Origin: a virus
Taxonomy: Duplodnaviria > Caudoviricetes
DNA: 59,737 bases
IMG/VR virus record: IMGVR_UViG_3300034980_000289
Span: 1-59,737 of that record
Strand: one strand, 5' to 3'
The notes below the pieces were generated by a model that made no database searches, was not told where the DNA came from, and saw only the letters and a program-made list of their open reading frames with translations. Position numbers and translations under genes: made by a program. This document shows positions 20,395-59,737 of this stretch, piece by piece (within the stretch, counting starts at the first letter, position 1; each line of letters opens with the position of its first letter).

Positions 20395-22480
20395 TTAACT
20401 CTTTTATAGCCTCTACCAACAATGGGACAAGTTTATCATATTGCACTGCATGATATTGAGGGTCTATAGGAGCAGATGTAACTGCTTCAGGAAGAATCTT
20501 TAAAACTTCTTGAGCTGAAACTCCTACCTTCTTCTCACTTGTATCATATCCAAGACTACCAGCAAGTTCATTTGGACTATAATGAAATCCATTGAGTGAA
20601 CAAACCTTTTCTAAAGCTTTTTCAATATTTCCATGTCTTGTCTTTAGTCTATCATCTGAATAATAAGCAGTTACTTCATTGGTAGCTCTTATTTCTCCAG
20701 TTGTGCCTGAAGCTGCCGTTCCTACTCCAAATGAATCAAATTGAATATCAGAATCTGTTTTTACATTTTGGTTCATCAAATAAACTTCAGTTGCACCTTG
20801 CCCCGTATTTAAAGTTGAGCAAGTTAACGCAGCAAATGTTACAGCATCATCAGTATCTATTCCCAATGAATCTCTTGTCGGAAGAGTTTGGTCACCAGTA
20901 TTAGTCCCAGATAGATTTCCTATATCTGTTAAGTCTTGTGCAGAGAGGTCTACATAAGCAGCAGTGCCAAGACTAAGAGTTGTTTTTATTTCAGCTACTG
21001 TAGTAACACCTGTTCCACCTCGTGCAACTGCTAATGTTCCACTTGTAATGTTCGCAGCTGAATGATTGTGAGAGACTAAAGCAAAATCTTCAGCATCTCT
21101 TGTGGCTATATCACCAAGTCCAAGAGAAGTTCTTCCATTGGAAGCATTAAGGTCAGTCGAACCTCCAGTCCATTTAGCATCAGTATTAGGAGCAGTATTG
21201 GTAATAGTTAATACATCATCAGCCGTAAAATTAACATCAATACCATTACCTTCTGCTATTTGCAATGTATCACCTGAAGTAATTGTGTATGTAGTAGTAT
21301 CACCGTCTTTTATAGTCCAAAATTGATAATTATCATAAGTAGTAGTAAAACTTGGCGTTACCGTAGTGACATTGCTTCCTTGAGCAGCTAAAGCCCAAAC
21401 AATACCACCACCGTCTATAAATCTTAAATTTCCAGTAGTTTGAGTAAAATATCCACCAAGAGGATTAACGTAAGAAGTGCTTATTGTAGCAGCAGATAAA
21501 TTAGCATTTATTTGTATATATCCAGTATCAGTATCTGTGTCTGTGGTAGTCATGGTAATATTAGTTCCAGCTACTAAATTACGTAGACAAGCAGCAGTTG
21601 TTGCAGAGCCTCCTCCAGTTAAAATTAATCCATGTTGTGAAGAGCCAGCACTTACTCCAGTGGCATCTGATAGAGTATAAGATGTAGTATTATTAGACGC
21701 TATAGTCATATTGTCACCACTAGGGGTTAAATATATATTAGGGCCAGCTACCAATTTTAAATCATCATTGCTACCTGAACTAGGAGCTAATCTTAAAATT
21801 ACATCATCTGAACTATCTACCCAAGAAGTAGCATAAGTAGTGTTTGTATCTGGGGGGAAATTAATTGTAGGTGTTAATATTGTATCATTCCCATCATCCG
21901 TTGCTGTAAAAAAGATGCCAGTACTTGCACCACTATCATAATCACTAGCAAATTTTAAATTAGTATTAGCTCCTATTGCTGTCGCATAACTACTGCTCAC
22001 TTCACTATAACTTTGAACTGATTCTATACCAGTGCCAGATATTGCATTAAAGTTTATATAAGAGCCATAATCAACACTATCAACAACAGTAATTGACAAA
22101 TTATTATTTTGGCTTCTTACTCCTCTAATATATGCATCACTAGAGGTATCAACAAACACTGCATCTTGAACAGTAGAATCAGCTCCTGTATATGAATTAT
22201 TAACATTTTTAACTGCTACTCCTCCTTCACTTGGTGTGGCAGTCCCTCCTCTAGAAATAACAGTACTTGGAGGTCTTCCTTTTGAAAAATCGCCTGTTGA
22301 AATTGACATTTCATTCCACCCAAGCTCCCCTTTTACTAAATGTACAAGACCCTTTCCAGGTACTTGAGTAAAAGATTGGTCTCCCATCTTACCTGAACGT
22401 GGATGAGGAGTACCTCTCTTAGTTCTAGGGGCATCTGCATGCTCATGTCTAGCTTGTCTTGTTTCTTTAGATGTGGGCAT
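20366..22480 (-). CDS. Tail fibre with C-terminal peptidase S74 intramolecular chaperone
   Basis: YYSDDRLK...GVSAQEV..ILPEAV...YDKLVPLLVEAIKEL. Confidence 0.85.
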   Translation of the reverse strand: MPTSKETRQARHEHADAPRTKRGTPHPRSGKMGDQSFTQVPGKGLVHLVKGELGWNEMSISTGDFSKGRPPSTVISRGGTATPSEGGVAVKNVNNSYTGADSTVQDAVFVDTSSDAYIRGVRSQNNNLSITVVDSVDYGSYINFNAISGTGIESVQSYSEVSSSYATAIGANTNLKFASDYDSGASTGIFFTATDDGNDTILTPTINFPPDTNTTYATSWVDSSDDVILRLAPSSGSNDDLKLVAGPNIYLTPSGDNMTIASNNTTSYTLSDATGVSAGSSQHGLILTGGGSATTAACLRNLVAGTNITMTTTDTDTDTGYIQINANLSAATISTSYVNPLGGYFTQTTGNLRFIDGGGIVWALAAQGSNVTTVTPSFTTTYDNYQFWTIKDGDTTTYTITSGDTLQIAEGNGIDVNFTADDVLTITNTAPNTDAKWTGGSTDLNASNGRTSLGLGDIATRDAEDFALVSHNHSAANITSGTLAVARGGTGVTTVAEIKTTLSLGTAAYVDLSAQDLTDIGNLSGTNTGDQTLPTRDSLGIDTDDAVTFAALTCSTLNTGQGATEVYLMNQNVKTDSDIQFDSFGVGTAASGTTGEIRATNEVTAYYSDDRLKTRHGNIEKALEKVCSLNGFHYSPNELAGSLGYDTSEKKVGVSAQEVLKILPEAVTSAPIDPQYHAVQYDKLVPLLVEAIKELSERKCSCGV

Positions 22481-27628: not shown

Positions 27629-27954
27629 TAGTTTTTAGTTCCCCATGATTCTGTTCTTTGTTGTGGAGTATGGTTAAAGGACTGAGTCCCTGTATTGTTA
27701 TTATTTCCTCCACCTCTATTCTCCCCATCATTGCCTGTATTTGCTCTTCTACCGCTATTATTACCTCTACTGTAAGGATTGTAATGATATACACCACTCC
27801 TGTAAAACAATGGTCTAAAGTGATAATCATATCCAATAGGATAGCCATTTACAGAGTGATTAATCTTGACTGGTGGTTTACCATTGGTAAGCTCAACTAC
27901 AGCAAGTGCTGAGACAAAGCCTAAAAAGAAATATGCTATTGCTTTACCTGGCAT
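27628..27954 (-). CDS. Signal/TM-anchored Y- and G/N-rich small protein
   Basis: Hydrophobic N-terminus, low-complexity tail; TAATG coupling on both sides. Confidence 0.55.
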   Translation of the reverse strand: MPGKAIAYFFLGFVSALAVVELTNGKPPVKINHSVNGYPIGYDYHFRPLFYRSGVYHYNPYSRGNNSGRRANTGNDGENRGGGNNNNTGTQSFNHTPQQRTESWGTKN

Positions 27955-29807
27955 TATGCGTTCTCCAATGCGGTTACTTTAGCTGAGAGTTCTTGAACTG
28001 CTTTTATTAGAACTGGAATTAATTGTGTATAATTAAGAAACTTTGTATCAGTCTTGTCATCACTACTCACTATTTCATCTATTATGCCTTCAACATCCTG
28101 AGCAATTAAGCCAAGATTTTCTGAATCATCTTGTTTTAATTTATATTTTTTAGGTTGTAATAGATTTATTGCATCAAGACCATAAGGAACTGGTTCAATA
28201 TCTTTCTTTAGTTTTATATCCGAACCAGTATTCCAAGCTGATGCCTTATGAGTTGCCCATGATGTACTTGAACCTGCATTCCAATACCAAAGCGATGGAG
28301 TATGGCTTGATGCACCATTATTACAAGTTCTATAGTTTATATAAAGTGCATTATTTTGAGCCCCAATCATAAATTCCGCACCATACCCCATTAATTCCAT
28401 TGTATCGTAAGCGTGGTTTCTTCCTATCCAAGAACCACCGCCAGAAAGCCCAGTGAGAACTCCGTCAAAATGTGCATACCCACCAAATGTGGCGGTGCTA
28501 CCTTCAAGTTTGAATACATTAGTATCACCAGTACCATCAACATAATTATCTATATAAAATCCAGAATCTTCAGTTCCATCAGTAACATCTAATGCGTGGG
28601 CTCGTAGAATAGTATAATATGTATCTTGGTTAGCAGAATTAATACCTGCAAAAGCTATTTGTCCTAAATAATCGTTGTCTGCCATAGAATTATCAGCAGG
28701 TCTTTTCCAAAACTGTAATTGTGCGGGGGTACTTGCATTATTTAAATTTGTTAATGTTAATACTGGATTCCACGATTCGCTATTGCTCAATGCAACACCC
28801 CCAGCAAATGTGGCGTTTTGAGAACCGTCAAGGGTTAAAGCAGTTGTTGCCCCACCAGTCTGAAAGAACATTGACCTTGTATAATTGCAATGTATATTAC
28901 CAAGAGCATATGCTGAAGTAGTATGTTCATCCTCAAAGTATATAATTCCATTGTTTTGACCTTGTCCTTTTAAATATAACTTAGCATCGCCACTTGTTTC
29001 GTTAACTATGAGGTCACCAGTAAATGTGGCGTTGCCACCATCTGCTATATTAAAAACATTTGTCGCACCAGCAGAACCATCATATACTGAAAAAATATTA
29101 GTTGTATTAGAGTTAATAGTCGCTGTTTGTGTTCCACCGTGAAATAATTGTAATTGAATACCACTCGCACTTCCTGAAACCATTTTCTGAAAAGTATCTC
29201 CTGTAGTATCCCCTATTGTTAACGCTGTATTTGAACCACCAGTAATTGCGACATCACCACCAAATATGGCGTTGCCATTCACATCAATTACCAAATCATC
29301 TGAATATCCACCGCCACCATAAGTAGTCCCTTGTAAAACAAAATTGTTAGTACTATCATCAAAGAATATTCTTCCCCTACCTACCCCACCTGAAGTAAAC
29401 TCTAATCCTATATCTGGAGAACCACTTACTTCTTTTATAATTAATTGTGGCATTGAATTGCCTGAAAATGATTTTAACCCTGTAAATGTCTGGGCAGTAG
29501 ATAAGTGAGCTGTATCTGCATCAAGATAAGCACTTGCTATCACAGATGCGTTCCATACACCAGTTCCTATTGTGCCTACTGAAGTAATCTGAGTTTGAGC
29601 AGCATCTACATTAAGAGTATTAGTAGAAAGGGTAAGTCCAGTACCACCAGCTAATAGTGTTTTACTAACTGCAATAGAACCAGCTAAGTGTGCGTTGTCT
29701 ATACTTCCATCAACGAAATCAGCACTGTCAATAGCATCATCTGCCATCTTCGCATTAGTAATTGCGTTGTCTGCTATTCCACTGGTTTTAATTTTTGTTA
29801 GAGCCAT
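27954..29807 (-). CDS. Tail fibre with S74 chaperone
   Basis: GSDIKLKK...GLIAQDV...YTQLIPVLIKAVQEL; NATFAG repeats. Confidence 0.85.
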   Translation of the reverse strand: MALTKIKTSGIADNAITNAKMADDAIDSADFVDGSIDNAHLAGSIAVSKTLLAGGTGLTLSTNTLNVDAAQTQITSVGTIGTGVWNASVIASAYLDADTAHLSTAQTFTGLKSFSGNSMPQLIIKEVSGSPDIGLEFTSGGVGRGRIFFDDSTNNFVLQGTTYGGGGYSDDLVIDVNGNAIFGGDVAITGGSNTALTIGDTTGDTFQKMVSGSASGIQLQLFHGGTQTATINSNTTNIFSVYDGSAGATNVFNIADGGNATFTGDLIVNETSGDAKLYLKGQGQNNGIIYFEDEHTTSAYALGNIHCNYTRSMFFQTGGATTALTLDGSQNATFAGGVALSNSESWNPVLTLTNLNNASTPAQLQFWKRPADNSMADNDYLGQIAFAGINSANQDTYYTILRAHALDVTDGTEDSGFYIDNYVDGTGDTNVFKLEGSTATFGGYAHFDGVLTGLSGGGSWIGRNHAYDTMELMGYGAEFMIGAQNNALYINYRTCNNGASSHTPSLWYWNAGSSTSWATHKASAWNTGSDIKLKKDIEPVPYGLDAINLLQPKKYKLKQDDSENLGLIAQDVEGIIDEIVSSDDKTDTKFLNYTQLIPVLIKAVQELSAKVTALENA

Positions 29808-32251
29808 TATGCGTTCTCCAATGCAGTTACTTTAGCTGATAATTCTTTTATTGCTTCAACTAATACTGCATTTATCTGATTAGCGTCTTGAACTGTTTTT
29901 ATACCTGTATCTTGATGAGTATTAATCACCTCTGGAACGATAGCCTCTAATTCTTGTGCAATAAAACCAAAATTTACCCTTTGATGATTTGCGTCCTCCT
30001 CGTCTGGGAATGGGTCATCTTCCTTCTTCCATTTGAACTGAACACCCCTCATTTGATTTACTTTATCAAGAGAACCAGAAAGTGTAGAAATATTTTTCTT
30101 AAGTCTTTCATCAGAGGCGGTATGATAAGAATTTCCGCTACCTGTAATATTCCCTGTTGAAGCAAGTCTCATAGCCTCTCGTGGGTCAGATGCACCACTC
30201 GGATTATGTTGAGTATAAAAAACTAAATCACCAATATTCCAGTTTGAATCTCCACCAGCACCAGTTCTTTGTGCACCTATCGCTGCAAAAATACTATTGT
30301 AATTTCCACTTGCACTTTTTCTTGACCAAGTGATAAAAGGAGCATACGTATGGTTTAATGCATTATTTTCTAAATTTAATCCAATTTGCCACGCTCTGTC
30401 GTTAGCAGCCTGGTCGCTTGTGGAGGTTTCGCCTTGGTCACAAGCAATATTCATCTTAATAACAGGACTATATCCAATATTGTCTGCTGTCCCAGCTGTA
30501 CCAGTGCTCCAATGTTCATTCCACAATATAGTTTTATTACAAGATTGTCCTAACTGAATAGCCCCCACCCCTCCATCGCTTGATTTTGAAAGACCTAAAG
30601 CATCCATATCTGCCTCAGTAGAAGACCCTCCAATTACTAATCTTTTATCAATTCCAGCAGTTATTACTGCACCACCACCACCTACTGCATTATAAAGTTG
30701 CCAATTACTACTTCCGTTTGCCATATAGCCAGTAATCCAAGTTGCATTATTATTCTTACCGACATAACCTAATTCCGCATCATTAAAAGCACCACACTCT
30801 GAACGAATGTAAGCATCACCACTTGCCGATAAAGCAGTAGCGTCTATTATTGGGGCAGTATAACCAGACAATCCTGTTTTCGTTATAGTGAGGCACGATG
30901 TACCAGCACTCATATCGAACTCTGCTATTTCAGCCGTAAAATCAGATGCACCTATTTTCAAATTGTTTAGACTTCCCCCTAATCCAAGCCAAGCAGATGC
31001 TCCTGATGACCTTGAGCCAATATTAAATGCAGTAGTCCCTGTAAATTTTATATCACCAGCAAATGAGGCGTTAGCTGAAGAATTTATTTGCAGAGCATTG
31101 ACATAAGAACCAGACGCTTTTGTTGCTATTGAAAGATTTCCACTTGTATCTGCAAACATTTTCCATTTATCTGGGTCGTTATCTGCTTGGTCAGCAAATA
31201 AATCAATCTCAGCGTTACCTCCCTCACCACCAAGAACTCTGAACAAAGTCTCACCAGAAGCACTTCCACCGACATCAACATTCCCAGCAAATACGGCATT
31301 TTGAGAAGTATCAATAGTCAATGCAGGTAAATCATCAGCCTCATCAAAGATTACAAGAGAATTGCTCCAAGCATAAATTTGCCAATCGCCAGTACCAGCA
31401 TCATCTTCTTGCAATCTAAGTGATGGAGCGTCTCCTTTTATATGAAGAACTGGGGTTACTCCTGCATTTTCCCCAGTATCGGGAGTTGTTGTTCCAATCC
31501 CTACCGCATTTGCAGAAGAATCAACAAACAAAGTCCCACTATCCCAGTTAAAGTCTCCTGTTCCACCAGTTAAAGATGTAAGAGTACCTACTGATTCTAA
31601 TGAACTTGCAGTTACTCCACTTGCAAGGGTTGAGCCTGATAAAGTATTTGCATCTGCTGTAACTGTTATTGCAGCTGAACCATCAAAGTTTACTCCATTA
31701 ATTGCCCTTGCAGTTGCTAAAGTAGTTGCAGTAGCGGCTAGTGTTACTGCTATATTTGCTGACCCATCAAAAGAAACTCCTCCAATAGTCCTCGCAGTTG
31801 CCAATGTAGCAGCTGTAGAAGCAGTAACTGTATTTTGGTTTATCCATGACATAGTACCATCGCCATCAGACTTTAATAATTGATTATTAGTACCATCCCC
31901 ACTTACTTGTAATTCATCAGCTCCTATTGAGCCTTCACCTACAGTTGAGGATTGACCCATAATAACTACATGAAAGTCTACTCCAGAAGCAGGTGCTCCT
32001 GTAAATGTTAATATTGAACCACTAATTGTATAAGCATCTGTTGGATGTTGAAGTACACCATCTATTGTAACTATTAGATTATCTACATTAGGAGTTATCG
32101 CTACGCCCGCTACCATTAATTTATAATTAACTATTGTACCATTAGCATTTTGGTCATAAGTAGATGAACTACCATCTTGACCTAATCCATTGAAATCATC
32201 AAGGATATAGAAATTCCCACTATTTGTTGGTGCGTGTCCTATATATGGCAT
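29807..32251 (-). CDS. Tail fibre with S74 chaperone
   Basis: ATARTIGGVSFDGSA repeats; ASDERLKK...GFIAQEL. Confidence 0.85.
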   Translation of the reverse strand: MPYIGHAPTNSGNFYILDDFNGLGQDGSSSTYDQNANGTIVNYKLMVAGVAITPNVDNLIVTIDGVLQHPTDAYTISGSILTFTGAPASGVDFHVVIMGQSSTVGEGSIGADELQVSGDGTNNQLLKSDGDGTMSWINQNTVTASTAATLATARTIGGVSFDGSANIAVTLAATATTLATARAINGVNFDGSAAITVTADANTLSGSTLASGVTASSLESVGTLTSLTGGTGDFNWDSGTLFVDSSANAVGIGTTTPDTGENAGVTPVLHIKGDAPSLRLQEDDAGTGDWQIYAWSNSLVIFDEADDLPALTIDTSQNAVFAGNVDVGGSASGETLFRVLGGEGGNAEIDLFADQADNDPDKWKMFADTSGNLSIATKASGSYVNALQINSSANASFAGDIKFTGTTAFNIGSRSSGASAWLGLGGSLNNLKIGASDFTAEIAEFDMSAGTSCLTITKTGLSGYTAPIIDATALSASGDAYIRSECGAFNDAELGYVGKNNNATWITGYMANGSSNWQLYNAVGGGGAVITAGIDKRLVIGGSSTEADMDALGLSKSSDGGVGAIQLGQSCNKTILWNEHWSTGTAGTADNIGYSPVIKMNIACDQGETSTSDQAANDRAWQIGLNLENNALNHTYAPFITWSRKSASGNYNSIFAAIGAQRTGAGGDSNWNIGDLVFYTQHNPSGASDPREAMRLASTGNITGSGNSYHTASDERLKKNISTLSGSLDKVNQMRGVQFKWKKEDDPFPDEEDANHQRVNFGFIAQELEAIVPEVINTHQDTGIKTVQDANQINAVLVEAIKELSAKVTALENA

Positions 32252-45508: not shown

Positions 45509-45976
45509 TTAATATCCTTTCTTCATTGAGTCAATAAGTTTATCTTCTCTCTTTTTAGGCTTTCCTATAGTATTATATTTCTTAGCTCTTTTTTTCATGT
45601 ACTCTCTAACTTCCGCATTGAAAGTATTAATTTTGAAAATTTCTTCATCAGTATGACCATAAGAAAAATCTTTTAAATAAGATTGATATGCATCTTCAGT
45701 TGCTTCCCCCCATTTTGAGTCAGCTCCAGTTGCTCCAATGTCATACCCTAGACTTTTTAAAGTTTTTTGTGAAGATAAAATATCTTTAGGGCTAATTCCA
45801 TATTTCATAGCCGTTTGACCATGAACTCCTTCATCTCCTAATATAACTGCTTCCCCTATCTTATCATACATTCTAGAGATTCCACCCATTTGAGATAAAG
45901 AATGTTCCGATGGAACACCCATTCTTTCAATCCAAGCCCTTCTTTCTTCTGTGGTTTGCGATTTGGTCTGAGTCAT
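45509..45976 (-). CDS. Peptidoglycan-binding-domain protein
   Basis: QK.LKSLGYDIG..GADSKWG.ATEDA (PG_binding_1-like). Confidence 0.65.
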   Translation of the reverse strand: MTQTKSQTTEERRAWIERMGVPSEHSLSQMGGISRMYDKIGEAVILGDEGVHGQTAMKYGISPKDILSSQKTLKSLGYDIGATGADSKWGEATEDAYQSYLKDFSYGHTDEEIFKINTFNAEVREYMKKRAKKYNTIGKPKKREDKLIDSMKKGY

Positions 45977-47535
45977 GCTACTATCCAGCTTTTTGCTTTC
46001 CTTACGGGTTTAAACCACTTTTTCTCTTTATTCTGAGAATAATTAGGTGGAAATGAGTGCAAATTTGCATAATAAAGTGTTTCAATGGTGTCATCGTGAG
46101 CCATTCTAGGGCCGAAAGTAAGTATTTCGTTGCTTAAATCAAACATATTCTCTCTTATATGTACTGTTCCCATACTGAATCTACCACTTAAACCACTATA
46201 AATTCTGTTTCTTTTGTTAGTACCTCCTGGTTTTTCAGGAATTACAGCAATATCAAAACGATTTATACGTCTTCTTTCATCATTTAATGCCTGGAAAATT
46301 GAACGGTTCATAGCCACATCTTCAACCGTAGCAGATGTACAATGATATTTGTTATAAAGTTCTATAATATAATCTACTACACCTTTCTTTTCTATAAGTT
46401 CCCCATCTTGTCCCTTTGCCCCTATGGTTGGAATAGAACGGTGTCTCTCATATTCTAGAGCATAAAGATTATTATTAACGTCCACAGCGATTACCATAAT
46501 AACGCTGAAATCAGAGTCTTTAGTATCAATATCGGTGGCAGGGTCACATCCGATAAACGTATTAACAGGAACTTTTTCCCCATCAATAATTATATAATTA
46601 ACTCCTTCTTCGTTTTCGTAGTACCCCTCCCAATATTTTATATGTTGTCTTCTCCATACAGAGTCCTCTTCTGATTGAACTTCCATCATATATTCTTGGA
46701 AGAACTTCGCAGGTTGTCCTGAATCTCTGTAAAACTTCTTCTTCTCTTCTAACTTGCTAGCTGGAAAGAACGAAGGCCAAAGCACACTCCCATTTGGGAG
46801 TATGGCTTTATAGGTGACTACCTTCCATGCGAACTCTTCTTTTTTCTTCTTATTTCGCTCAAAATTAATGATAAGATTATTAATAAAAGAATCATAATGT
46901 ACGGGAGTCCCATTAACACGAAGCCTACCAGTATGAGGCTCAAGCGCTGGGTATACAACAGCAGTAACAAGATTGGCATTTTTAGCTCTTGCGTCAACTG
47001 TGATTGTATTTTGTTCGTGCTCAAAGTCGTCAAGGCAGATAAGGTCATATCTTTTATGAAGTTTTGCACCTCCACGTATTCCCGCGACATTAGATTTTGA
47101 AATAAGTTTACAGCCATTTTCTAACTCTATATCTTCCTCTGTCCATTTCCTACCCTTTAAATTGCCAAAGAAATACTTTATTCTTTCATTGTATTCAAAG
47201 TGATATTTTATGTAATCCATATTGCCTACTGACAATTTCTGAGTAGCAGACACCCAAGCATAGAAATGCATATCATCTTTAGGACAAAATGCAAAATCTT
47301 TAATGATTGAACATTTGGTTAGGACAGTTTTACCATGTCCTCTAGGTAAAATGATAGCAAGTTGCTTTACTTCTTTATCATCAATACAGTCAGCCATTTC
47401 ATAATGAAACGCTGGGGTTTCAGAACGCATAAAGTCATCTGGTAAGAATAGTTTACCGAATGCTATTAAATCTTTACTCGCTAGGAGTAGTGCTTTTTCG
47501 GCTTCGCTTACGTTCTGGCTGTTTATATTTGACAT
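45973..47535 (-). CDS. terL: Terminase large subunit
   Basis: Walker A PRGHGKT, Walker B ICLDDFE, GTP, nuclease GCDPA, HDD. Confidence 0.95.
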   Translation of the reverse strand: MSNINSQNVSEAEKALLLASKDLIAFGKLFLPDDFMRSETPAFHYEMADCIDDKEVKQLAIILPRGHGKTVLTKCSIIKDFAFCPKDDMHFYAWVSATQKLSVGNMDYIKYHFEYNERIKYFFGNLKGRKWTEEDIELENGCKLISKSNVAGIRGGAKLHKRYDLICLDDFEHEQNTITVDARAKNANLVTAVVYPALEPHTGRLRVNGTPVHYDSFINNLIINFERNKKKKEEFAWKVVTYKAILPNGSVLWPSFFPASKLEEKKKFYRDSGQPAKFFQEYMMEVQSEEDSVWRRQHIKYWEGYYENEEGVNYIIIDGEKVPVNTFIGCDPATDIDTKDSDFSVIMVIAVDVNNNLYALEYERHRSIPTIGAKGQDGELIEKKGVVDYIIELYNKYHCTSATVEDVAMNRSIFQALNDERRRINRFDIAVIPEKPGGTNKRNRIYSGLSGRFSMGTVHIRENMFDLSNEILTFGPRMAHDDTIETLYYANLHSFPPNYSQNKEKKWFKPVRKAKSWIVA

Positions 47536-47707
47536 CTATAAATTTCCTAAAACCTGTCATATCTTTTTTATACTCAATATAATCCTCGAATACCCTCTCT
47601 AAATCATCTTGTCTTAAACTTGACATTTGAGACCAATTCACCAAACCCTTTATTGAACGCATAAGATGATGTTTTGTGAGAGGCTTTCTATTGGGATGTT
47701 TGCTCAT
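47474..47707 (-). CDS. Hypothetical protein
   Basis: ATGA coupling; operon position. Confidence 0.55.
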   Translation of the reverse strand: MSKHPNRKPLTKHHLMRSIKGLVNWSQMSSLRQDDLERVFEDYIEYKKDMTGFRKFIDVKYKQPERKRSRKSTTPSE

Positions 47708-47835
47708 CCTTGCCCTCTTTTCTTTTTACGATAATACTTCTTACTTCCTTTTATACCAAACTTTGAACCTCTTCCTTCGCCTTGCCTAGTCTTCTTCCCA
47801 TTTTTCTTAGGCTTGTACTCATCGTTAATATACAT
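47704..47835 (-). CDS. 43-aa basic peptide ending RGQG (not in ORF track)
   Basis: MYINDEYKPKKNGKKTRQGEGRGSKFGIKGSKKYYRKKKRGQG; fills the intergenic gap exactly. Confidence 0.75.
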   Translation of the reverse strand: MYINDEYKPKKNGKKTRQGEGRGSKFGIKGSKKYYRKKKRGQG

Positions 47836-48717
47836 TTAATTTTCCCAACACTTAATCCTTGTATCGGAAAACTCCATAGTAATCCAACCAGTCCTAACAA
47901 TTGGGTACATCGAATATCGAGCATACTCAGCGTATCGTAAGAAAGAACCTCCTCTTACATACCAACGACGCTTAAGAGCTTCTTCATTACCATCAACCCT
48001 AATCGAATCAACAGGCTTAGCGTAGAGCTGGTGATTATGACCAAGTACAAACACATCACCTTCGGAGTAAACAGCTGCCAATTTATCCAATTCGAGGTCG
48101 CCATTTTTTGCACCACTTTTACCGTGTCCACTAACAAGAAACCATTCCTTTTCCTTAACTTTAATTCTTGAATACCCTGGATATTGATAGTAAGGTACGT
48201 TCAATTCAGCCGCAAGAGTCTTACAAACATCAAAATCTAGTATGTTAAAACTACGGAGAAAATCATGATTACCTCCACGGATAAATAGGCACTTATCTTT
48301 AATTGGGGCTACCAATTGGAGGAAGGTAAGGTATTGCTCATCAGGTGGTATCATCTGACCTCTTTGAGAAATTTTATAGTGAGGAGGAATCAATTCTATC
48401 AAATCTCCATTGCCAAACCAAACTGCATTTGGGTCTTTAGCTATGGTTCTGACAGCTTCACTAAACTTTTTTAAATCAAACTCATGAGCCCCAACGTGGA
48501 TATCAGTGAGACAATGAACTCGAATAAGGTTCTTAGAACTGTAAGAGTAAATATCTCCAGGCTTAATGAGTAGATTGTATTCTTTTACTTCGGTGTCTAT
48601 GGGTACAGAAAAATATTTAAGACAAGAATTACATTTAAACTTCTGAGAAATCTTACCCTTCCTATTTGACTTACCATCCTTTTTGGTGTACATAGAAGTA
48701 CAATTTGGACAAACCAT
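47836..48717 (-). CDS. Calcineurin-like metallophosphoesterase with N-terminal Zn ribbon
   Basis: DIH, GD, GNHD, HG, GHNH; CPNC...CNSC. Confidence 0.88.
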   Translation of the reverse strand: MVCPNCTSMYTKKDGKSNRKGKISQKFKCNSCLKYFSVPIDTEVKEYNLLIKPGDIYSYSSKNLIRVHCLTDIHVGAHEFDLKKFSEAVRTIAKDPNAVWFGNGDLIELIPPHYKISQRGQMIPPDEQYLTFLQLVAPIKDKCLFIRGGNHDFLRSFNILDFDVCKTLAAELNVPYYQYPGYSRIKVKEKEWFLVSGHGKSGAKNGDLELDKLAAVYSEGDVFVLGHNHQLYAKPVDSIRVDGNEEALKRRWYVRGGSFLRYAEYARYSMYPIVRTGWITMEFSDTRIKCWEN

Positions 48718-49526
48718 TATACCTCCTTCCCTGAGCCTAGTATCTTTCTCTCGGCTTTCTCTATTTGCTCAGGAGAAAAACCACTAAACATTCCGACAAC
48801 TCCCTGTTCTATTTTCTTTACTCCAGTCCCTAGAGTCCCTATCGCCTTACCTAGTTCTTTTAAGGATTGAAGGGCAATATTTTCATCAGCTGATGTCTCA
48901 GCTAAGACTTTTAGATTGTTTAAGATGTACTCATGGTTTATCCCTAAAGATTTAGCAATATCCTGTACACCCTTCTCAACTTCTTTCATTACACGCTCCT
49001 GTTTTAAAAGGACGACTGCTTTTCTTTTTGCTTTATCTGGGGAATCCTCTTCATAGGCATCCATATAAGCTTTAACTGCACCCATCCCTACGGCTACATT
49101 TGTAGCAAATAACTTTTCTTTATTAGTAACGCTCTTTCTTTCTTTTACTCTTTTATTAGGATTAGTGATAGTTCTAGAAAAAGTATATCTATTTGGATGT
49201 CTTGTGAAATCAGAATCCATGAAATTCTTAGAATCTATAATAAAAGTACCCACGACAGTCCTAACGTACCCCTTTGCATATTTATAATTTTTTGAATCTT
49301 TTGGATGAGAGATGCTATTCACTTTGAGTAATTGAAGGATATTCCCATCGTCACTCCACACCCAATCTCCCTCTTTGCCATCTCTCCAGTCCTCTACTGG
49401 GGTGATATCAGGATGGTCTTTATAAAATTCAGAAATGTGTTCATAAACAAAATGTTCCTTTTTTTTAATGGTATTTGACTTCATCCTGCTTGTGGGAATG
49501 GGTCTGTATTTCCTAATTGAGCCCAA
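48717..49526 (-). CDS. Terminase small subunit-like protein
   Basis: KEKLFA......AVKAY..AY HTH pattern; upstream of terL; true start probably 49484. Confidence 0.6.
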   Translation of the reverse strand: MGSIRKYRPIPTSRMKSNTIKKKEHFVYEHISEFYKDHPDITPVEDWRDGKEGDWVWSDDGNILQLLKVNSISHPKDSKNYKYAKGYVRTVVGTFIIDSKNFMDSDFTRHPNRYTFSRTITNPNKRVKERKSVTNKEKLFATNVAVGMGAVKAYMDAYEEDSPDKAKRKAVVLLKQERVMKEVEKGVQDIAKSLGINHEYILNNLKVLAETSADENIALQSLKELGKAIGTLGTGVKKIEQGVVGMFSGFSPEQIEKAERKILGSGKEV

Positions 49527-49687
49527 AGAGAATCAATGAGACCTACGACCTCGATGGGGATATAAAACCTTTTACCATTAATCTCAATTGGGGATAGCTC
49601 TTCATCCGCAGACGCTAACCTAGAGAGAACTCGTTCTTGCTCTTCATAAGGCAATTGAGCTAACCACTCTATCGAAATTGAAGACAT
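49481..49687 (-). CDS. Hypothetical protein
   Basis: Operon position. Confidence 0.55.
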   Translation of the reverse strand: MSSISIEWLAQLPYEEQERVLSRLASADEELSPIEINGKRFYIPIEVVGLIDSLWAQLGNTDPFPQAG

Positions 49688-49702
49688 AGGGCATATAACT
49701 GT

Positions 49703-49909
49703 TTAACTGTTAGCAACTGTTTTCTTTTCTTTCTTTTCTTTCTTTATATTACTTTCTTTCTTTTCTTTCTTTTCTTTTAGTATTTCAGCAGCCATTTCTA
49801 GGATAGCTTCATCAAATTCACGGTCTTCTTGCTCAGCCTCACGAGCAGCTACTCCAGTTAAACCTTCTTTGCCAGATAATTGCTTTGATGTTATGTAACC
49901 TTCGCTCAT
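49703..49909 (-). CDS. Charged small protein, first gene of the late arm (possibly leaderless)
   Basis: ATG lies 6 nt after the TAAATT -10 box; no SD. Confidence 0.6.
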   Translation of the reverse strand: MSEGYITSKQLSGKEGLTGVAAREAEQEDREFDEAILEMAAEILKEKKEKKESNIKKEKKEKKTVANS

Positions 49910-49915
49910 GTATCT

Positions 49916-49945
49916 AATTTAAGGGTATCCCCAGGTTCTTTTCAA
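49916..49945 (-). promoter_or_regulatory. Putative late-arm promoter TTGAAA-N18-TAAATT
   Basis: Spacer contains AGAACCTGGG, shared with 50587. Confidence 0.6.
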
Positions 49946-50093
49946 GAAAAATTGTAGTATTTTGAAAGGCGCTCTTGTTTTGGGGGTACACCACTTAAAA
50001 GTGGTTTTTCGTAAATAGAATTTACGTTAAAACGTAGTTTATGTTTTTTAAAAGTATTTGTATAGATAATTATACAGAAATGGAGATGATTAA

Positions 50094-50468
50094 ATCGCAA
50101 TAGTCAAGTTTAAAGCATTCGACTACTCAGGTGGTCGTGCTCTTAAGCGGTGGCGTGCTCCCAGAATCATAAGCATGGAGTCCGTGAAGCAAGCGTTAGC
50201 CGTAGGCATACAAGCCCTAGCTGTACGTAAGCAAGACAGGTATGCGTGGGAAGAAGAGCAGATAGCTAAAGCTGTATTGCAATTCCTAGAGAACGTTATG
50301 ATTCAAGCTCATACTGAAATGCCCAGAGATGACGCATTAGCTCTTGAAGCATCTATATCTGATGACCTCAAGGACTTATACAATGACATGGAAGCAATTC
50401 AGAACGCACGTGAGTCTTACGGCATGAACCGCAAAATGTCCAAGAAAGCAAAGCTGTTGTCTGGTTAA
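50094..50468 (+). CDS. First early-arm protein (probable ATC start at 50094; ATG at 50175)
   Basis: GGAGA at 50082..50086, 7 nt before an in-frame ATC GCA; open to 50468. Confidence 0.6.
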   Translation: MAIVKFKAFDYSGGRALKRWRAPRIISMESVKQALAVGIQALAVRKQDRYAWEEEQIAKAVLQFLENVMIQAHTEMPRDDALALEASISDDLKDLYNDMEAIQNARESYGMNRKMSKKAKLLSG

Positions 50469-50580
50469 ACAGACAGCAGCAATGCTGCTATATATATATA
50501 TTCAGTGCATATTCATGTATAAGATGAGCATAAGATGAGTATTTCATAGACATACATTCATCTCTATTATATATATACCT

Positions 50581-50610
50581 TTTAATAGAACCTGGGCACT
50601 AACTTAAATA
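50581..50610 (+). promoter_or_regulatory. Putative promoter for the ncRNA cluster
   Basis: AGAACCTGGG-N7-TTAAAT, same layout as the divergent 49916..49939 element. Confidence 0.5.
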
Positions 50611-50628
50611 CCAGGAAAAGTTTAAAAT

Positions 50629-50816
50629 CTTAGTACTTTAGTGTGAAGTAAGCACGTAACTGTGCCGCTGTAGCCACACATTGAAGTGCTAAGTGATATT
50701 TAAAATCTTAGCTCTTAGAGTCAATGATAAAGAACGTATGATTCATCGGTGTAAGCAAGGCGACACTGCCGAGTGTTGGACTGAGTTTATTGAATTATGC
50801 TACTTTAAGAGCTGAG
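50629..50816 (+). ncRNA. Two tandem stem-closed RNA cassettes (50629..50693, 50707..50816)
   Basis: 17-bp and 15-bp closing stems with G-U pairs; both flanked by TTAAAATCTTAG and AGTGATATTT. Confidence 0.6.
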
Positions 50817-50832
50817 TGATATTTTCGCATCA

Positions 50833-51234
50833 TCTAGAATCCAGGGAAACCCTTCCATTAAGGAGCATCCTGTTGCATCAGTTGAAGCAATTTTGGGCAT
50901 TCTGTTTCTTCCGCAGTTTGCCCTAAAAAATTTAACATATCCCCGTTCACATGGGGGATTAATAAATGAATAGACGTGTGATTAGCAATGATGGTGTTGT
51001 GGTTATGCTCAACCAGCCATAGTTCATAATTGTTGTGAAAGCAAAGTTAATCGCGTTCGTATTTTCGGGTATTGCCCAATGGTGATATCTATTCATGAGG
51101 GGATATGAGCACAGCCAGATGGTAAATGGCTGGCGAAAGAGTATTCTAGAAGACTCAGAGCAAAATTTTAAATAACCATGTAAGACCGCTGATTAGGTCA
51201 TAGTTACCAGCATAAATCATGGGCATTGGTTATT
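50833..51234 (+). ncRNA. Multi-branched structured RNA region
   Basis: TCTAGAAT/ATTCTAGA, CATATCCCC/GGGGATATG, ATGAATAGA/TCTATTCAT and AATAACCA/TGGTTATT pairings. Confidence 0.5.
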
Positions 51235-51998
51235 ACATTTGTCTTCGGACATACGGCTGCATATAGTCGTTAGATAAACCTAGAAATAGGTATAAAGTGG
51301 AAGCATCTCAAAGAGGTGTTATAAGCGATACTATTTATAGTATTAAAGTATGCAAATGAGTTATGTACAAGTCTACGGTTAAGTCTCTCTGAGCGGCTAA
51401 GTCTTGTATTTGTGCTTGGGTAAAGTACGATGAGGTAGTGATACCAATAAGAGAACTCATAGTAAATGGCATAAGTGTGCGAGCAGTTGCTGTTTATAGT
51501 CGATATATGTTATCTTGTCGAAAGATTAAGATGATAGTTGTCAAGACCATATTTCATGTTTGTCGCAAAACATAAGTATAGGAGGTTGTCGTAGTATACT
51601 TGCTTGAAAGAGTGAGGTCTACAATCAACAGCACAACCTTCTCCATACCCTTCTTTACCAATTAAGATTGGCAGGCTATACCTGCTATTCATAATAATAA
51701 AGAAAATCAATAGCCTGTTGACGGTTGAGAGCATAGGACACTTTACCTCTGAAACAATGAGGTGCATTTGGGCTCGAAAGGCTCGGTGTTCATGGTGAAA
51801 GCTCAGGTTGGCTTTATAAGTCATTAGGCGGTCGGCAGACCTGCACTGCAGTTATTAACTGTGTATACAACTTAACCGTTACGAGTGATGAGCGTTACTC
51901 ATTGTGTCTGATAGGATACTAGTCGCAAGATTAGTGGACAAAAGAGGGAAACAATACTCCTCTCAAAGACTTATCGCATCAACCTGTAGTCTCAGGGT
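51235..51998 (+). ncRNA. Giant structured ncRNA, GOLLD-like
   Basis: About 760 nt with no + strand ORF; many GNRA/UUCG hairpins; 3' end ...GAGGGAAACAATACTCCCTC...CCTGTAGTCTCAGG resembles, from memory, GOLLD 3' domains; boundaries approximate. Confidence 0.6.
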
Positions 51999-52258
51999 GA
52001 TATTTAGAGCAATTAAGGATGATATGAGAAGTACAAGGGTGTAAGTGTGAGCAAACCGTCTTTACATACCCATAAGCAATCAGTTCTAACTCATAGAACT
52101 AATGAACGAAGTTAGACTACCTTTATTTAGCGTGAATAAAGTAAAAAGGTCACCTGCGTCTTGGAGACGACAAGCTATACGGTATAGCTCGGAGGCATGA
52201 GTATGTACAAAGCCAATGAACAAAGCACCATTTTTTAACTAATAAGAGGGTATTAACT

Positions 52259-52729
52259 ATGACTAAAAGAGTAAAAGTTAAATTAAATATAAAACCACAA
52301 GCAATTATATGTGATGTAGATGGTACAGTTGCTTTAATGCACGGTAACAGAACACCGTTTGAATGGGATAAAGTTTGGAGTGATAAGCCTAATGATTGGG
52401 TAATAGATTTAATAGAATCATATTGTTTGATACAAAAATCTTATAATAAAGATTCTAATCTAATATTTTTATCAGGAAGATGTGATGTATGTTTTGATGA
52501 TACTAAAGAGTGGCTTGAAAAGTATTTTCATATTCCATTTGAATTATATATGAGACCAAAGGCTCAAGAATTTGAGAAAGATGCTAAGATAAAGCATGAG
52601 ATATATATTAATGAAATTAAACCTAACTATGATGTACGGTTTGTAATTGATGATAGAAAACAAGTGGTAGATATGTGGAGAAACGTAGCAGGTTTACCAG
52701 TAGCTCAAGTAGCAGAAGGGAATTTCTAA
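52259..52729 (+). CDS. HAD-family polynucleotide 3'-phosphatase (T4 PNKP phosphatase-like)
   Basis: DVDGT, LSGR, LYMRP, K, IDDR..VVDMWR. Confidence 0.88.
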   Translation: MTKRVKVKLNIKPQAIICDVDGTVALMHGNRTPFEWDKVWSDKPNDWVIDLIESYCLIQKSYNKDSNLIFLSGRCDVCFDDTKEWLEKYFHIPFELYMRPKAQEFEKDAKIKHEIYINEIKPNYDVRFVIDDRKQVVDMWRNVAGLPVAQVAEGNF

Positions 52730-52866
52730 TGAGTAAAAAGAAAGAAATAATTATTAGTAGTGGTAAAAAGATGCAAATGGTAGTTATTCAAACACCTATT
52801 GCTGGGATAAAGAATAGAAAAGGTGAACAGGCAATAGATTCAATCACTAAACACAGAAAAAAATAA
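52729..52866 (+). CDS. Small basic hypothetical protein
   Basis: TAATG coupling to the phosphatase gene (MSKKKEII...). Confidence 0.55.
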   Translation: MSKKKEIIISSGKKMQMVVIQTPIAGIKNRKGEQAIDSITKHRKK

Positions 52867-52868
52867 TT

Positions 52869-53147
52869 ATGGATAAAAGTGATAGAACAACTATGATAGA
52901 TGCCCTTCATTCTGTTGGCATTTATAAACAATTGCTTGATAGTTTAAATGATGATAAAATACAATCATTGTTTAGTTTAATTGGATGGGCAGCTTCCTCC
53001 TCTTTTACTGATGATATCAAGGATGAAGAGTGTGAACACACTGGCAATAAGGAAGTTGCTGAAGAGTACTATGGAAGAGAAGAGAGCCAATTCACCACTT
53101 ATTATATCTGTGAAGATTGTGGAGAAGAAGTGGCTGGTGAAGAATGA
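52869..53147 (+). CDS. Hypothetical protein with a Zn-ribbon C-terminus
   Basis: CEH...CEDCG. Confidence 0.6.
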   Translation: MDKSDRTTMIDALHSVGIYKQLLDSLNDDKIQSLFSLIGWAASSSFTDDIKDEECEHTGNKEVAEEYYGREESQFTTYYICEDCGEEVAGEE

Positions 53148-53265
53148 CTGTTAAAAAATGTCGAAGTCAAAGACAGGTAAAAGCTGAAGTCATATTAAAT
53201 GCATGGAAGAACTATTGTAGAACTTCATGGATTTATAGATTTCTAGAAAGGCTAGGTTTAAGATA

Positions 53266-54042
53266 ATGAAAATTAAAAAGACCAAAGACTATGATAAATT
53301 TGTATTTATCAAAATTAATCGAGATATTATGACTACTCATGTTAACAATTTAAATAAATCATTTAATATTGTTGGTGAAAGGTTAGATATGTACCCGATT
53401 ATTGTGAAGCCACTTAAAAAGAAGTATGCGAGTGGAGCATATCCAAATGGAAAGCACGAAATATGGGACGGACAGCATAGATTTGTTACTGCTAGAAATA
53501 AGGATAGTTTTATATATTATATGATTGATGAAGAAGATGTATTGCAGCCCGAACATTTAGCATATCTTCAAACATCTAAATCATGGAACTTAGATAATTA
53601 TCTAAATAAATATTGTTCTTTAGCCAATACAATAGGCAAAGGAACTTATGATGATTATAAGATTTATGATGGGTTTAAAAGGAAGAGTGGATGGAGTCAC
53701 AACTGTGTTATTGCTTTATTAGTTAGTAACACTAAAGGCGCTGTGGCATCATTTAAAGAAGGTCATTTCAAAATTGAAAGAAGCATTTCCGATGCTAATA
53801 ACATTATTGAAATGATTAGTGACTTTGGAAGTCATTTTAAGTATTATAAGGCACGAAGCTTTGTGCTTGCTATGCTTAGAATCATCACTAGGGTAGAAAA
53901 TTATAACCATAAAAGAATGATGGCTAAGATGGAATACTTGAGTGAGAAATTAGTTAAATGCCCTGATGCAACAACGTATGTCTTGCTTTTAGAGAAATTG
54001 TATAACTTTAACTCTACTGGTGATTTCATACGTTTCATCTAG
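53266..54042 (+). CDS. ParB/Srx-like domain protein
   Basis: NR, PIIV, DGQHR. Confidence 0.75.
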   Translation: MKIKKTKDYDKFVFIKINRDIMTTHVNNLNKSFNIVGERLDMYPIIVKPLKKKYASGAYPNGKHEIWDGQHRFVTARNKDSFIYYMIDEEDVLQPEHLAYLQTSKSWNLDNYLNKYCSLANTIGKGTYDDYKIYDGFKRKSGWSHNCVIALLVSNTKGAVASFKEGHFKIERSISDANNIIEMISDFGSHFKYYKARSFVLAMLRIITRVENYNHKRMMAKMEYLSEKLVKCPDATTYVLLLEKLYNFNSTGDFIRFI

Positions 54043-54053
54043 GTGATGCGAAA

Positions 54054-54085
54054 GGACAGGGTTGCCGTCGGGGTGACCCTGTTCT
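54054..54085 (+). terminator. GC-rich hairpin, terminator or processing site
   Basis: GGACAGGGTTGCC/GGTGACCCTGTTC stem followed by a U-rich stretch. Confidence 0.5.
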
Positions 54086-54111
54086 AACTTTAATTAATAA
54101 GGAGGAATATT

Positions 54112-54327
54112 ATGGCAAAAGCCGTAAAAGTATCAAGAGATGATTTTGAATCTTATCTAGATGTTCAAAATTATGGAGCATGGAATATGTTGTCTAGTGA
54201 AGCACGAGCTGCCACTGGATTAGAAGAAGAGATATATTCAAAGATAATAAAAAATTATAGTGGATTATCTAAAAAATATAACGATGAAAAGGAGAAAGAC
54301 CAATGGGTTTTGACGTTTACGGATTAA
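54112..54327 (+). CDS. Hypothetical protein
   Basis: AAGGAGG RBS. Confidence 0.7.
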   Translation: MAKAVKVSRDDFESYLDVQNYGAWNMLSSEARAATGLEEEIYSKIIKNYSGLSKKYNDEKEKDQWVLTFTD

Positions 54328-54926
54328 ATCCGCAAGAACATAGTAGTTTGAGTGAAGATGCTATAAAGTTTCAAGATAAAGACGGTTGGGCAATGTTTGA
54401 TAAGATGGATGATAAAGACAAAGAAGCTTATTTCAATGCTCAAGATAAATACCGAGAAGAAAATCCTGGTTATTATTTTCGTAATAACGTATGGTGGTGG
54501 AGACCTCTATGGGAATTTGTATGTACTAGTTGTGATGATTTCTTAACACATAAAGATATGGATAAAGGTGGATATAACGATGGTAAGAAAATATCTAAGA
54601 CTAAATCACTTAAGATTTCTAAGAGATTATCTAAATTAATCGCAGATGGCACTGTTGATATGCTTGAAAGAAGAAGTACACTGGCAATTGAAAAAGCAAA
54701 AGCTCATAATAAAGAGGTTAGAAAAGAAATGGATAGAATAAGTGATGAATGTAAAGAAAAGCATGGAAAAGATTTAGTTCCTGCTAATTATCCTGAGCCT
54801 TATAAATCTCAGTGGGACGATGCATACTCAAAAGAAGATTGGACATCAAGTTATCCATTTTACGCAGATAATGTTAAATTATTTGCTACGTTCTGTCAAG
54901 AAAGTGGAGGTTTTGAAATATGTTAA
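54303..54926 (+). CDS. Conserved phage hypothetical protein
   Basis: MGFDVYG...YFRNNVWWWRPLW...SGGFEIC. Confidence 0.7.
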   Translation: MGFDVYGLNPQEHSSLSEDAIKFQDKDGWAMFDKMDDKDKEAYFNAQDKYREENPGYYFRNNVWWWRPLWEFVCTSCDDFLTHKDMDKGGYNDGKKISKTKSLKISKRLSKLIADGTVDMLERRSTLAIEKAKAHNKEVRKEMDRISDECKEKHGKDLVPANYPEPYKSQWDDAYSKEDWTSSYPFYADNVKLFATFCQESGGFEIC

Positions 54927-55159
54927 AGCTAAGAGAAATACATACTCAAAAAGATAACGTATTAAAGCATTTAAGGAGTGGAAGAGAAATTAACTCTTTA
55001 GATGCCTTAGAACAATATGGTTGCTTCAGATTAGCTGCTATCATATGGAATTTAAGGGATGAGGGTCATAAAATTGTTACTAAGCCAGTAATAAATAAAT
55101 ACGGCAAATCGTTTGCATCCTACAAATTAAATGACGATTTAGTACCGTCTCAAAAGTAG
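54920..55159 (+). CDS. Winged-helix DNA-binding protein
   Basis: VLKHL..G..I..LDA...YGCFRLAA.I..LR..G..I.T. Confidence 0.75.
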   Translation: MLKLREIHTQKDNVLKHLRSGREINSLDALEQYGCFRLAAIIWNLRDEGHKIVTKPVINKYGKSFASYKLNDDLVPSQK

Positions 55160-55232
55160 TGCTAGAGAAGTTGGGGTAGATAGATAAATATTGTTAAATT
55201 AATACAATAATATGTCATGCCAAATTCTACCC

Positions 55233-55262
55233 TTGACTTCTATCTTCGTATATTATTAAATT
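55233..55262 (+). promoter_or_regulatory. Putative promoter TTGACT-N18-TAAATT for the recombination/replication genes
   Basis: Intergenic; overlaps the 3' arm of hairpin 55166..55241. Confidence 0.6.
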
Positions 55263-55287
55263 TAGAAGGGTTAAATAAGGTAAGCAA

Positions 55288-56004
55288 ATGATAAATGTAG
55301 AACAAATATATCATGACTATTTACTGTCCGAATCTAAAAATCATATTAAAAAATATAAAGATTATAAGGGTTGGTACAGTGCTTCCTCAGCTGGTTCATG
55401 CTTCATAAAACAGCATTTAAAATCTAAAGGAACAGATGAAAAACCTATGGATGAGCGCACAATGAGGGTGCTTAGACTGGGAACAATTGTTCATTCAGAT
55501 ATTGAAAAAGCGTTAGCTGAGGGAAGTAAAAATATTGATAAAAGTCAAGTAAAGTTGTACTCAGAAAAGAGAATTACTTTACCTGATGTGAATGTAGTCG
55601 GTCATCTTGACATAGGTGTACATCTTTTAATAGAAGATAAACTTTTTGTGTATGATTTAAAGACTGCTCATTCATTTAAATGGAAAAAAGTGTTTGGAAG
55701 AAATATAGACCCAAAACCATCTGTTAATTATCAATTGCAGTTGGGTACTTATGGCATGGGCTTGGGAAGAGAGCTTGAATGTGAAGACGTAGAATTAGGT
55801 CTTCTTTGGTATAAAAAGGATGATTCTCGTATGAAATTACAAACCATAGATAGTATGTGGTTAGATAATGCCTATGAGTATTGGGTAGAATTAAATGAAA
55901 CATTATCAGATTCCGTTCCTAGTCCAGGAAGCACCAATGCTCCTGTATACAATTGGGAATGTAATTATTGTCCATATAAAGGGACAGCATGTGAGGGTGT
56001 ATGA
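55288..56004 (+). CDS. Cas4-like PD-(D/E)XK exonuclease
   Basis: SAS..G.C, GTIVH, GHLD, DLKT, QL..Y, C..CPY...C (Fe-S cluster). Confidence 0.85.
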   Translation: MINVEQIYHDYLLSESKNHIKKYKDYKGWYSASSAGSCFIKQHLKSKGTDEKPMDERTMRVLRLGTIVHSDIEKALAEGSKNIDKSQVKLYSEKRITLPDVNVVGHLDIGVHLLIEDKLFVYDLKTAHSFKWKKVFGRNIDPKPSVNYQLQLGTYGMGLGRELECEDVELGLLWYKKDDSRMKLQTIDSMWLDNAYEYWVELNETLSDSVPSPGSTNAPVYNWECNYCPYKGTACEGV

Positions 56005-59571: not shown

Positions 59572-59737
59572 ATGTCCAGCGTGTGGTTTTAAATATAATA
59601 GATATCCAAAGGCAACACAAATAAGAGACTTATTATTCCAAAGAGATAAAGAAACAAAAAAAACATTAAAGAAAGTTATTGGATTAATAAGGGAAAATAT
59701 CCCCTCAGAGGACACAGATGATAAAACCCACAAGTTC
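59564..59737 (+). CDS. 5' part of a junction-spanning 131-aa hypothetical protein (MDKCPACGFKY...), continuing to 367
   Basis: ATG at 59564; the frame stays open through the repeat into ORF 182..367; N-terminal CxxC. Confidence 0.8.
   Translation, partial: MDKCPACGFKYNRYPKATQIRDLLFQRDKETKKTLKKVIGLIRENIPSEDTDDKTHKF
59593..59737. repeat. Terminal direct repeat, copy 2
   Basis: Matches 1..145; an ORF reads through the junction. Confidence 0.95.

Follow-up and report, generated by a model that had tools for sequence, protein, structure and literature searches.

Positions 51254-51996 (+) of the window (the whole 59,737-nucleotide stretch of DNA analysed here), possibly together with a leader from about 51238, very probably constitute the gene for a GOLLD RNA, a large, non-coding and highly structured phage RNA. 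The element is a new, compact and tRNA-free member of the known GOLLD family and a genuine copy of it, not a new class. GOLLD RNAs are among the very few natural RNAs known to build a closed cage without protein. The features of the element and its surroundings, the five hairpins downstream of 51254 being read directly in the sequence, are the following:

51240-51251 (+): hairpin TGTC-TTCG-GACA in the variable leader, immediately 5' of the conserved core
51254-51580 (+): GOLLD 5' domain, with the motif CGGNNGNATATNNTCGTTANATAAAC-hairpin(GAAA)-ATAAAG at its start, homologous to other viral loci
51278-51291 (+): hairpin ACCTA-GAAA-TAGGT
51510-51824 (-): chance ORF of 104 aa, not a gene, with its frame broken in a relative and no codon-position bias
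51511-51533 (+): GAAA hairpin
51581-51998 (+): GOLLD 3' region as modelled by RF02032, comprising the first hairpin, the linker and then the conserved 3' domain with the end CCUGUAGUCUCAGG
51672-51717 (+): helix CAGGCUAU/AUAGCCUG, which closes off a linker of about 30 nt (51680-51709) with no tRNA inside
51830-51841 (+): hairpin GGTC-GGCA-GACC
51918-51935 (+): hairpin ACTAGTC-GCAA-GATTAGT
51983-51996 (+): 3' hairpin CCTGTAGTCTCAGG
52259-52729 (+): phosphatase (HAD) domain of a polynucleotide kinase-phosphatase (PNKP), the first downstream gene (Pfam HAD_PNKP, 1.4e-40; phrog_505, 1.5e-45)

The family assignment came from the Infernal cmscan search against Rfam that the preliminary description had suggested. 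Among all 4,227 families, the sole match in the window was GOLLD (RF02032) at 51581-51998 (+), with 177.5 bits and an E-value of 3.1e-48, the gathering score for this family being 150 bits. The match ran untruncated over model positions 1-416 of 416 with a mean posterior of 0.94, and repeat searches returned it again. A permissive scan of 49900-52300 (E <= 1) returned nothing besides GOLLD; ROOL, OLE, group I/II introns and RNase P had no match there at this threshold and none at gathering score window-wide. Initially, the element had been read either as a variant of GOLLD or as a new class. The first of these readings was confirmed, as the Rfam model was matched end to end above the gathering score and the remainder of the element aligned with the 5' domain of many GOLLD loci; the second found no support, given the full coverage of the GOLLD model above its cut-off and the lack of matches to the other families just named. 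The four closest full copies that we scanned scored 166-205 bits against the same model. When eight loci of the window's subgroup were scanned against Rfam, GOLLD was reported in six; L111 and L113 gave no GOLLD match at E <= 1e-5, despite their sequences aligning with other subgroup loci. Additionally, a blastn search of the GenBank phage collection with 50900-52260 gave no match.

RF02032 models only the conserved 3' part of GOLLD and leaves the 5' half, which varies in the family according to the available text of PMC12286853, outside the model. To place the 5' half we used homologues. Relatives fetched through the terminase-like protein numbered 269, of which 80 loci were kept, and 47 of their records were searched with the GOLLD model. 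Full-length matches, all short of the gathering score, were found in six of these 47 records (L082-L087), at 116-141 bits (E 1e-33 to 2e-41); among the five relative records that were at least 90% complete, GOLLD was found in three and absent from two. Alignment of the relatives' GOLLDs with the window revealed a strongly conserved stretch right at the start of the reported region. As a degenerate pattern with 27 specified bases, this 5' motif had exact matches in 103 viral-contig stretches and none when 185,579 bacterial and archaeal species were searched with one genome per species, so that it gave no prophage or host lead. The GOLLD 3'-end motif followed the 5' motif after 734-825 nt in 64 of the 103 stretches and in the window, from which it follows that 51254-51580 is the 5' domain of GOLLD and that the element as a whole is one RNA, with a total length of 743-761 nt. 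The window copy was the shortest of the 65 full-length copies (734 nt from motif to motif), followed by its near-twin L096 (737 nt), and its 5' domain was about 70-90 nt shorter than in the main, tRNA-linked group of GOLLDs. The minimum free energy of 51238-51580 corresponded to a z-score of -3.29. The preliminary description had set the RNA at 51235-51998, which stood as a location and not as a pair of boundaries: the conserved core extends from 51254 (51238 in one relative) to 51996. A further locus, L195:7345-8159 (-), contained a GOLLD 3' region of the window type (165.7 bits) and a 5' region that could not be aligned with the shared 5' motif, which makes it an apparent example of 5'-domain replacement.

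The folding of the region was strongly asymmetric between strands. The + strand of 51235-51998 had a minimum free energy of -223.5 kcal/mol against -194.8 +/- 6.2 for dinucleotide shuffles (z -4.62; 0 of 20 shuffles as good), and the opposite strand had a z-score of -0.64, with 5 of 20 shuffles as good. Both the folding beyond dinucleotide-shuffled controls and the restriction of the signal to the + strand, which had been deduced from G-U pairs and tetraloops, were thereby upheld. The claim that the region is hairpin-dense on the + strand and without a credible CDS was likewise borne out: every hairpin reported before was located in the sequence, and the element sits in a 1.8-kb gap, between 50469 and 52258, with no + strand ORF exceeding 45 aa. 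The long-range pair GACGGTTGAG/CTTAACCGTT was present and corresponds to the Rfam bracket helix, and the pair CAGGCTA/TAGCCTG, at 51672-51679 and 51710-51717, matches the covarying linker-closing helix of other GOLLDs. Two details had to be corrected: Rfam and covariation favour GAUGAG/CUCAUU over the register GAGTGAT/GTTACTC, and the 3' hairpin, previously given as GGGAAACAATACTCCC, actually reads GAGGGAAACAATACTCCTC. In the alignments, most homologues have a hairpin at the leader position, often with a UUCG-type loop and variable in sequence; the one at 51240-51251 may mark the 5' end of the primary transcript. A hairpin at about 51802-51816 has the palindromic loop UUAUAA, which was considered as a stand-in for a published symmetric kissing loop, an assignment that is not claimed here. 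With respect to coding potential, the possibility of a conserved coding signal in the minus-strand ORF had been raised and none was found. The frame was interrupted in L096, which is 96.5% identical over the span (longest open runs of 54 and 83 aa), and substitutions in four relatives were evenly distributed over the three codon positions (2/4/5, 9/5/7, 21/23/27 and 27/27/29).

Covariation among homologues, named earlier as a test of the RNA, was analyzed in a MAFFT alignment of 30 sequences, namely the window and L096 plus 28 sequences representing the other 95%-identity clusters. RNAalifold returned a consensus structure of 120 pairs in 26 helices, and for 101 of the 120 pairs at least one sequence had both sides changed with the pair kept. 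Paired cells amounted to 92.1%, compared with 70.6% in 500 shuffles and 35-43% when partners were slid by 1-3 columns. The covariation score was 0.627, a value that none of the 500 shuffles reached (0.238 +/- 0.007) and that exceeded those of the slid versions (0.089-0.146), over which a structure derived from the same alignment is favoured. MAFFT is not structure-guided, and around the start of the Rfam region it misplaced the window's subgroup by about 25 columns. Fifteen helices (helices 2-16) located upstream of the linker, outside the Rfam-modelled part, carried compensatory changes. Furthermore, a separate alignment of 13 subgroup members gave compensatory helices at 51279-51290, 51327-51344, 51434-51445, 51462-51497, 51499-51547 and 51511-51533. 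Both halves of the element have covariation-supported helices.

The record carries a 145-nt direct terminal repeat (1-145 and 59593-59737, 99% identical), and it therefore represents a complete or near-complete genome of about 59.6 kb. The phage location of this GOLLD is given by the IMG/VR virus record itself, with its portal, head, terminase-like and tail-fibre genes and its terminal repeat. Leftward genes occupy 4388-49909 and encode the portal, the major head protein, the terminase-like protein and three tail-fibre proteins with an endosialidase-chaperone domain, and the rightward genes, starting at 50175, encode a Sak-type annealing protein, a PD-(D/E)XK nuclease, a DnaB-like helicase and a DNA methyltransferase. 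The rightward arm runs on from the window's end into its start. The terminase-like protein is about 23% identical to those of cultured phages, several of them N4-like, a level at which no host or family can be assigned. In the structural arm, an ORF of 3102 aa at 7166-16474 (-) had no match in PHROGs, Pfam or PDB sequences, nor did its middle 1401 aa in the GenBank phage collection; a virion RNA polymerase label was considered for it and withheld, as no database match supports it despite the N4-like terminase matches. All three tail-fibre-like proteins (27954-32251 and 20366-22480, -) terminate in a Peptidase_S74 intramolecular chaperone domain, repeated N-terminal DNA (repeats D2 and D3) is common to two of them, and a 515-aa neighbour has a C1q domain. 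Upstream of the element, 50469-51234 folded more stably than shuffled sequence on both strands (z -4.30 on + and -2.86 on -) and had no Rfam match. Within it, two tandem long-hairpin modules at 50621-50824 are flanked identically, 5' by TTTAAAATCTTAG... and 3' by ...AGTGATATTT; a single module was found in L096 and L002, which are without 50702-50807, and in L005, which is without approximately 50643-50702.

Comparison with related phages by blastn showed homology over 51254-51996 with L196 (92% identity) and L194 (83%), and over 51238-51996 with L193 (79%). The flanking genes were 66-74% identical to those of the same three loci at the DNA level or did not align, and protein identities near the RNA were 37-41% for the downstream phosphatase and 60% for another early protein; the terminase fragment of L194 was 54% identical. 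Conversely, a GOLLD of another subclade, which blastn aligned only over 108 nt at 74%, was carried by phages with a terminase 79-81% identical to that of the window. Judged from these comparisons, GOLLD is the best conserved piece of the rightward (replication/recombination) arm, and the genome is a mosaic. The high conservation of the RNA could reflect either cassette exchange or strong selection. Across window positions 45973-56000, the structural arm was closest to the L040/L154 group (terminase 79-81% identical in amino acids) and the early arm, with GOLLD, the PNKP-type phosphatase and a 207-aa protein, to the L194/L196 group (terminase 54% identical). In relatives without GOLLD there was nothing obvious in its place: seven such loci (135 kb) contained no Rfam family at all, and in the complete relative L020 the corresponding position is an ORF-poor gap of 873 nt, which was unstructured (z -0.57).

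The absence of a nearby tRNA, already remarked in the preliminary description, extended to the whole window, where ARAGORN detected 0 tRNA and 0 tmRNA genes. All 11 loci of the window's subgroup were tRNA-free and 20 of 24 main-group representatives had at least one tRNA in the fetched locus, these loci being 1.4-14 kb long, so that absence from the short ones says little. Neighbouring tRNA genes are frequent in the family without being obligatory, and main-group loci typically have a tRNA-Met adjoining GOLLD or arrays of 17-24 tRNAs. In four of them (L098, L126, L132 and L183), tRNA-Met and large tRNA arrays are accompanied by a phage tmRNA gene. The helix that closes the linker of the window has its equivalent in the main group, where a covarying-stack scan placed a covarying stack of five pairs around the linker (main-group alignment columns 606-610 and 709-713). 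A complete tRNA-free phage genome of 59.6 kb argues that tRNA linkage is unnecessary for whatever GOLLD does. With no tRNA encoded by the phage and a linker of only about 30 nt, any cargo or partner would be host-derived or a phage protein and not a linked tRNA. Among the papers listed by a literature search on GOLLD RNA and phage, none had a title or abstract on tRNA-free marine phages or on a PNKP link; the sub-lineage may already be included in the GOLLD alignment of Kretsch et al.

The GOLLD sequence occurs in marine RNA libraries. The stretch was present (at least half of its sampled words) in 20 runs from 17 studies, all marine, seawater or vent metagenomes and one possibly the source sample, and six of these runs, from five studies, were RNA libraries. 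Contigs on the element were obtained in all four RNA runs examined (four studies, region 48500-54500), together spanning 51253-52228, in runs that had been chosen because the stretch occurs in them. This evidence consists of assembled contigs, which carry neither strand, ends, level nor timing, and such libraries can hold DNA. Contigs from these runs were near zero on 48500-51250 and 52230-54500, a pattern that carries no evidential weight, in runs selected for the element. Two contigs started at 51253 (X14) and 51254 (X8, with sequencing adapter directly before it), a weak hint at the 5' end, and the X9 contig was unlike the window in the 17 letters ahead of 51259. At the 3' side the RNA-library contigs ended at different positions (51878, 51909, 52064 and 52228). 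A promoter and terminator scan of 49800-52400 gave 10 and 1 hits, respectively, against 8.3 and 1.3 in shuffles, and did not place the transcript ends.

Several other explanations of the element were weighed against a GOLLD gene. That it belongs to a new class of large ornate RNA that merely resembles GOLLD would agree with a 5' domain shorter than that of most GOLLDs, with a genome without tRNA and with the sub-threshold scores of 116-141 bits in the related phages L082-L087, but the window copy itself covers the full model and lies above the cut-off, it shares the 5' start motif and several 5' helices with the tRNA-linked main group, and a variable 5' region is already part of the family descriptions in the available text of PMC12286853, so we consider this reading extremely improbable. 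Just as improbable is the proposal that the hairpins act as DNA, in an origin, a packaging site or a promoter array, or that the region encodes the 104-aa minus-strand ORF. The region does lie near the switch between leftward and rightward genes, and the 766 nt upstream of it also fold better than shuffles on both strands; inside the element, however, the folding signal is one-stranded and covarying pairs pass through G-U intermediates that are valid solely in + strand RNA, and the ORF part is already refuted by the broken frame in a 96.5%-identical relative and the lack of a third-position bias.

The downstream gene raises another alternative, namely that the structure is not a free-standing RNA but a cis-acting leader or regulatory structure of the PNKP-type phosphatase mRNA. 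The phosphatase gene lies 260 nt downstream on the same strand, its linkage to GOLLD recurs in L196, L191, L194 and L193, and the RNA-library contigs of two runs extend beyond 51998, to 52064 and 52228. However, tblastn found the phosphatase homologue (37-41% amino acid identity) downstream of GOLLD in those four loci and in no other locus examined, GOLLD elsewhere adjoins tRNAs and not a phosphatase gene, homology with diverged relatives ends abruptly at 51996, and the spacer 51999-52258 is unstructured (z +1.46). We therefore regard a leader function as very unlikely and retain the reading as a GOLLD gene. A PNKP linkage as a general feature of GOLLD was also considered and rejected, being confined to four loci that all belong to the window's own clade.

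What such an RNA would form is best judged from env-38, a marine GOLLD of 833 nt that was resolved by cryo-EM as a D7 14-mer cage 380 A across (Kretsch et al., Nature 2025, PMC12286853; preprint 10.1101/2024.12.08.627333), in which, according to the available text, the 5' domains form the caps and the 3' domains the rings, and a disordered 42-nt linker lies inside. By analogy with this structure, the window RNA would fold into two domains, a 5' cap and a 3' ring, with a short linker between them, and its copies would associate by kissing loops and A-minor contacts to form a hollow homo-oligomeric cage with the linker pointing inward, so that the window copy may assemble into a cage like that of env-38. 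As the 5' domain that forms the cap in env-38 is shorter here by some 70-90 nt, the stoichiometry or even the closure of the cage could differ. GOLLD has no known function in the available text of the same paper, where encapsulation of tRNAs, ribosomes or other molecules is suggested. In addition, the GOLLD of a Lactobacillus prophage reportedly accumulates in lytic growth yet is dispensable for phage production (PMC7567579, available text), and the RNA thus need not do anything essential. A role as an accessory factor of lytic growth that would sequester or scaffold a host component of RNA handling, such as ribosomes, tRNA or a defence nuclease, is speculation that we consider doubtful at best. 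Also unlikely is the joint reading that a compact, tRNA-independent GOLLD sub-lineage would be the most conserved, possibly exchangeable, early-arm cassette of uncultured marine phages, with a trimmed cap that could close the cage with another number of subunits and a phosphatase pairing that could tie GOLLD to RNA repair or tRNA-directed defence. The window provides a compact natural variant with sharp conservation edges (51254 and 51996) and with close and distant homologues for comparison, and this copy could be used as a small construct in tests of how cage geometry depends on the 5' cap; the established picture of the family is unchanged by it.

Lastly, the element can be set beside the known systems that it most resembles. 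With env-38 GOLLD it has in common the full-length conserved 3' region, the two domains with a linker, the 5' start motif, the GAAA hairpins, a phage genome, a marine origin and a size class of about 750-830 nt, whereas its linker measures about 30 nt compared with the 42 disordered nt of env-38, and, unlike in the family and env-38, it has no adjoining tRNA-Met or tRNA array and is followed by a PNKP-type phosphatase gene. ROOL is also a large structured RNA of phages, frequently encoded close to tRNAs, and builds a cage from RNA alone, in this case an 8-mer (PMC12286853, available text), but its sequence and fold are unrelated to the window element, in agreement with the lack of a ROOL match in 49900-52300 at E <= 1. 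The abundant transcript of about 800 nt from Vibrio phage ICP1 (Barth et al. 2020, PMC7567579) is alike in being a large non-coding RNA from an ORF-free gap of a lytic, tRNA-free phage; in the available text of that report the authors compared solely its length with GOLLD and ROOL, and it is likened here to the window element by description.
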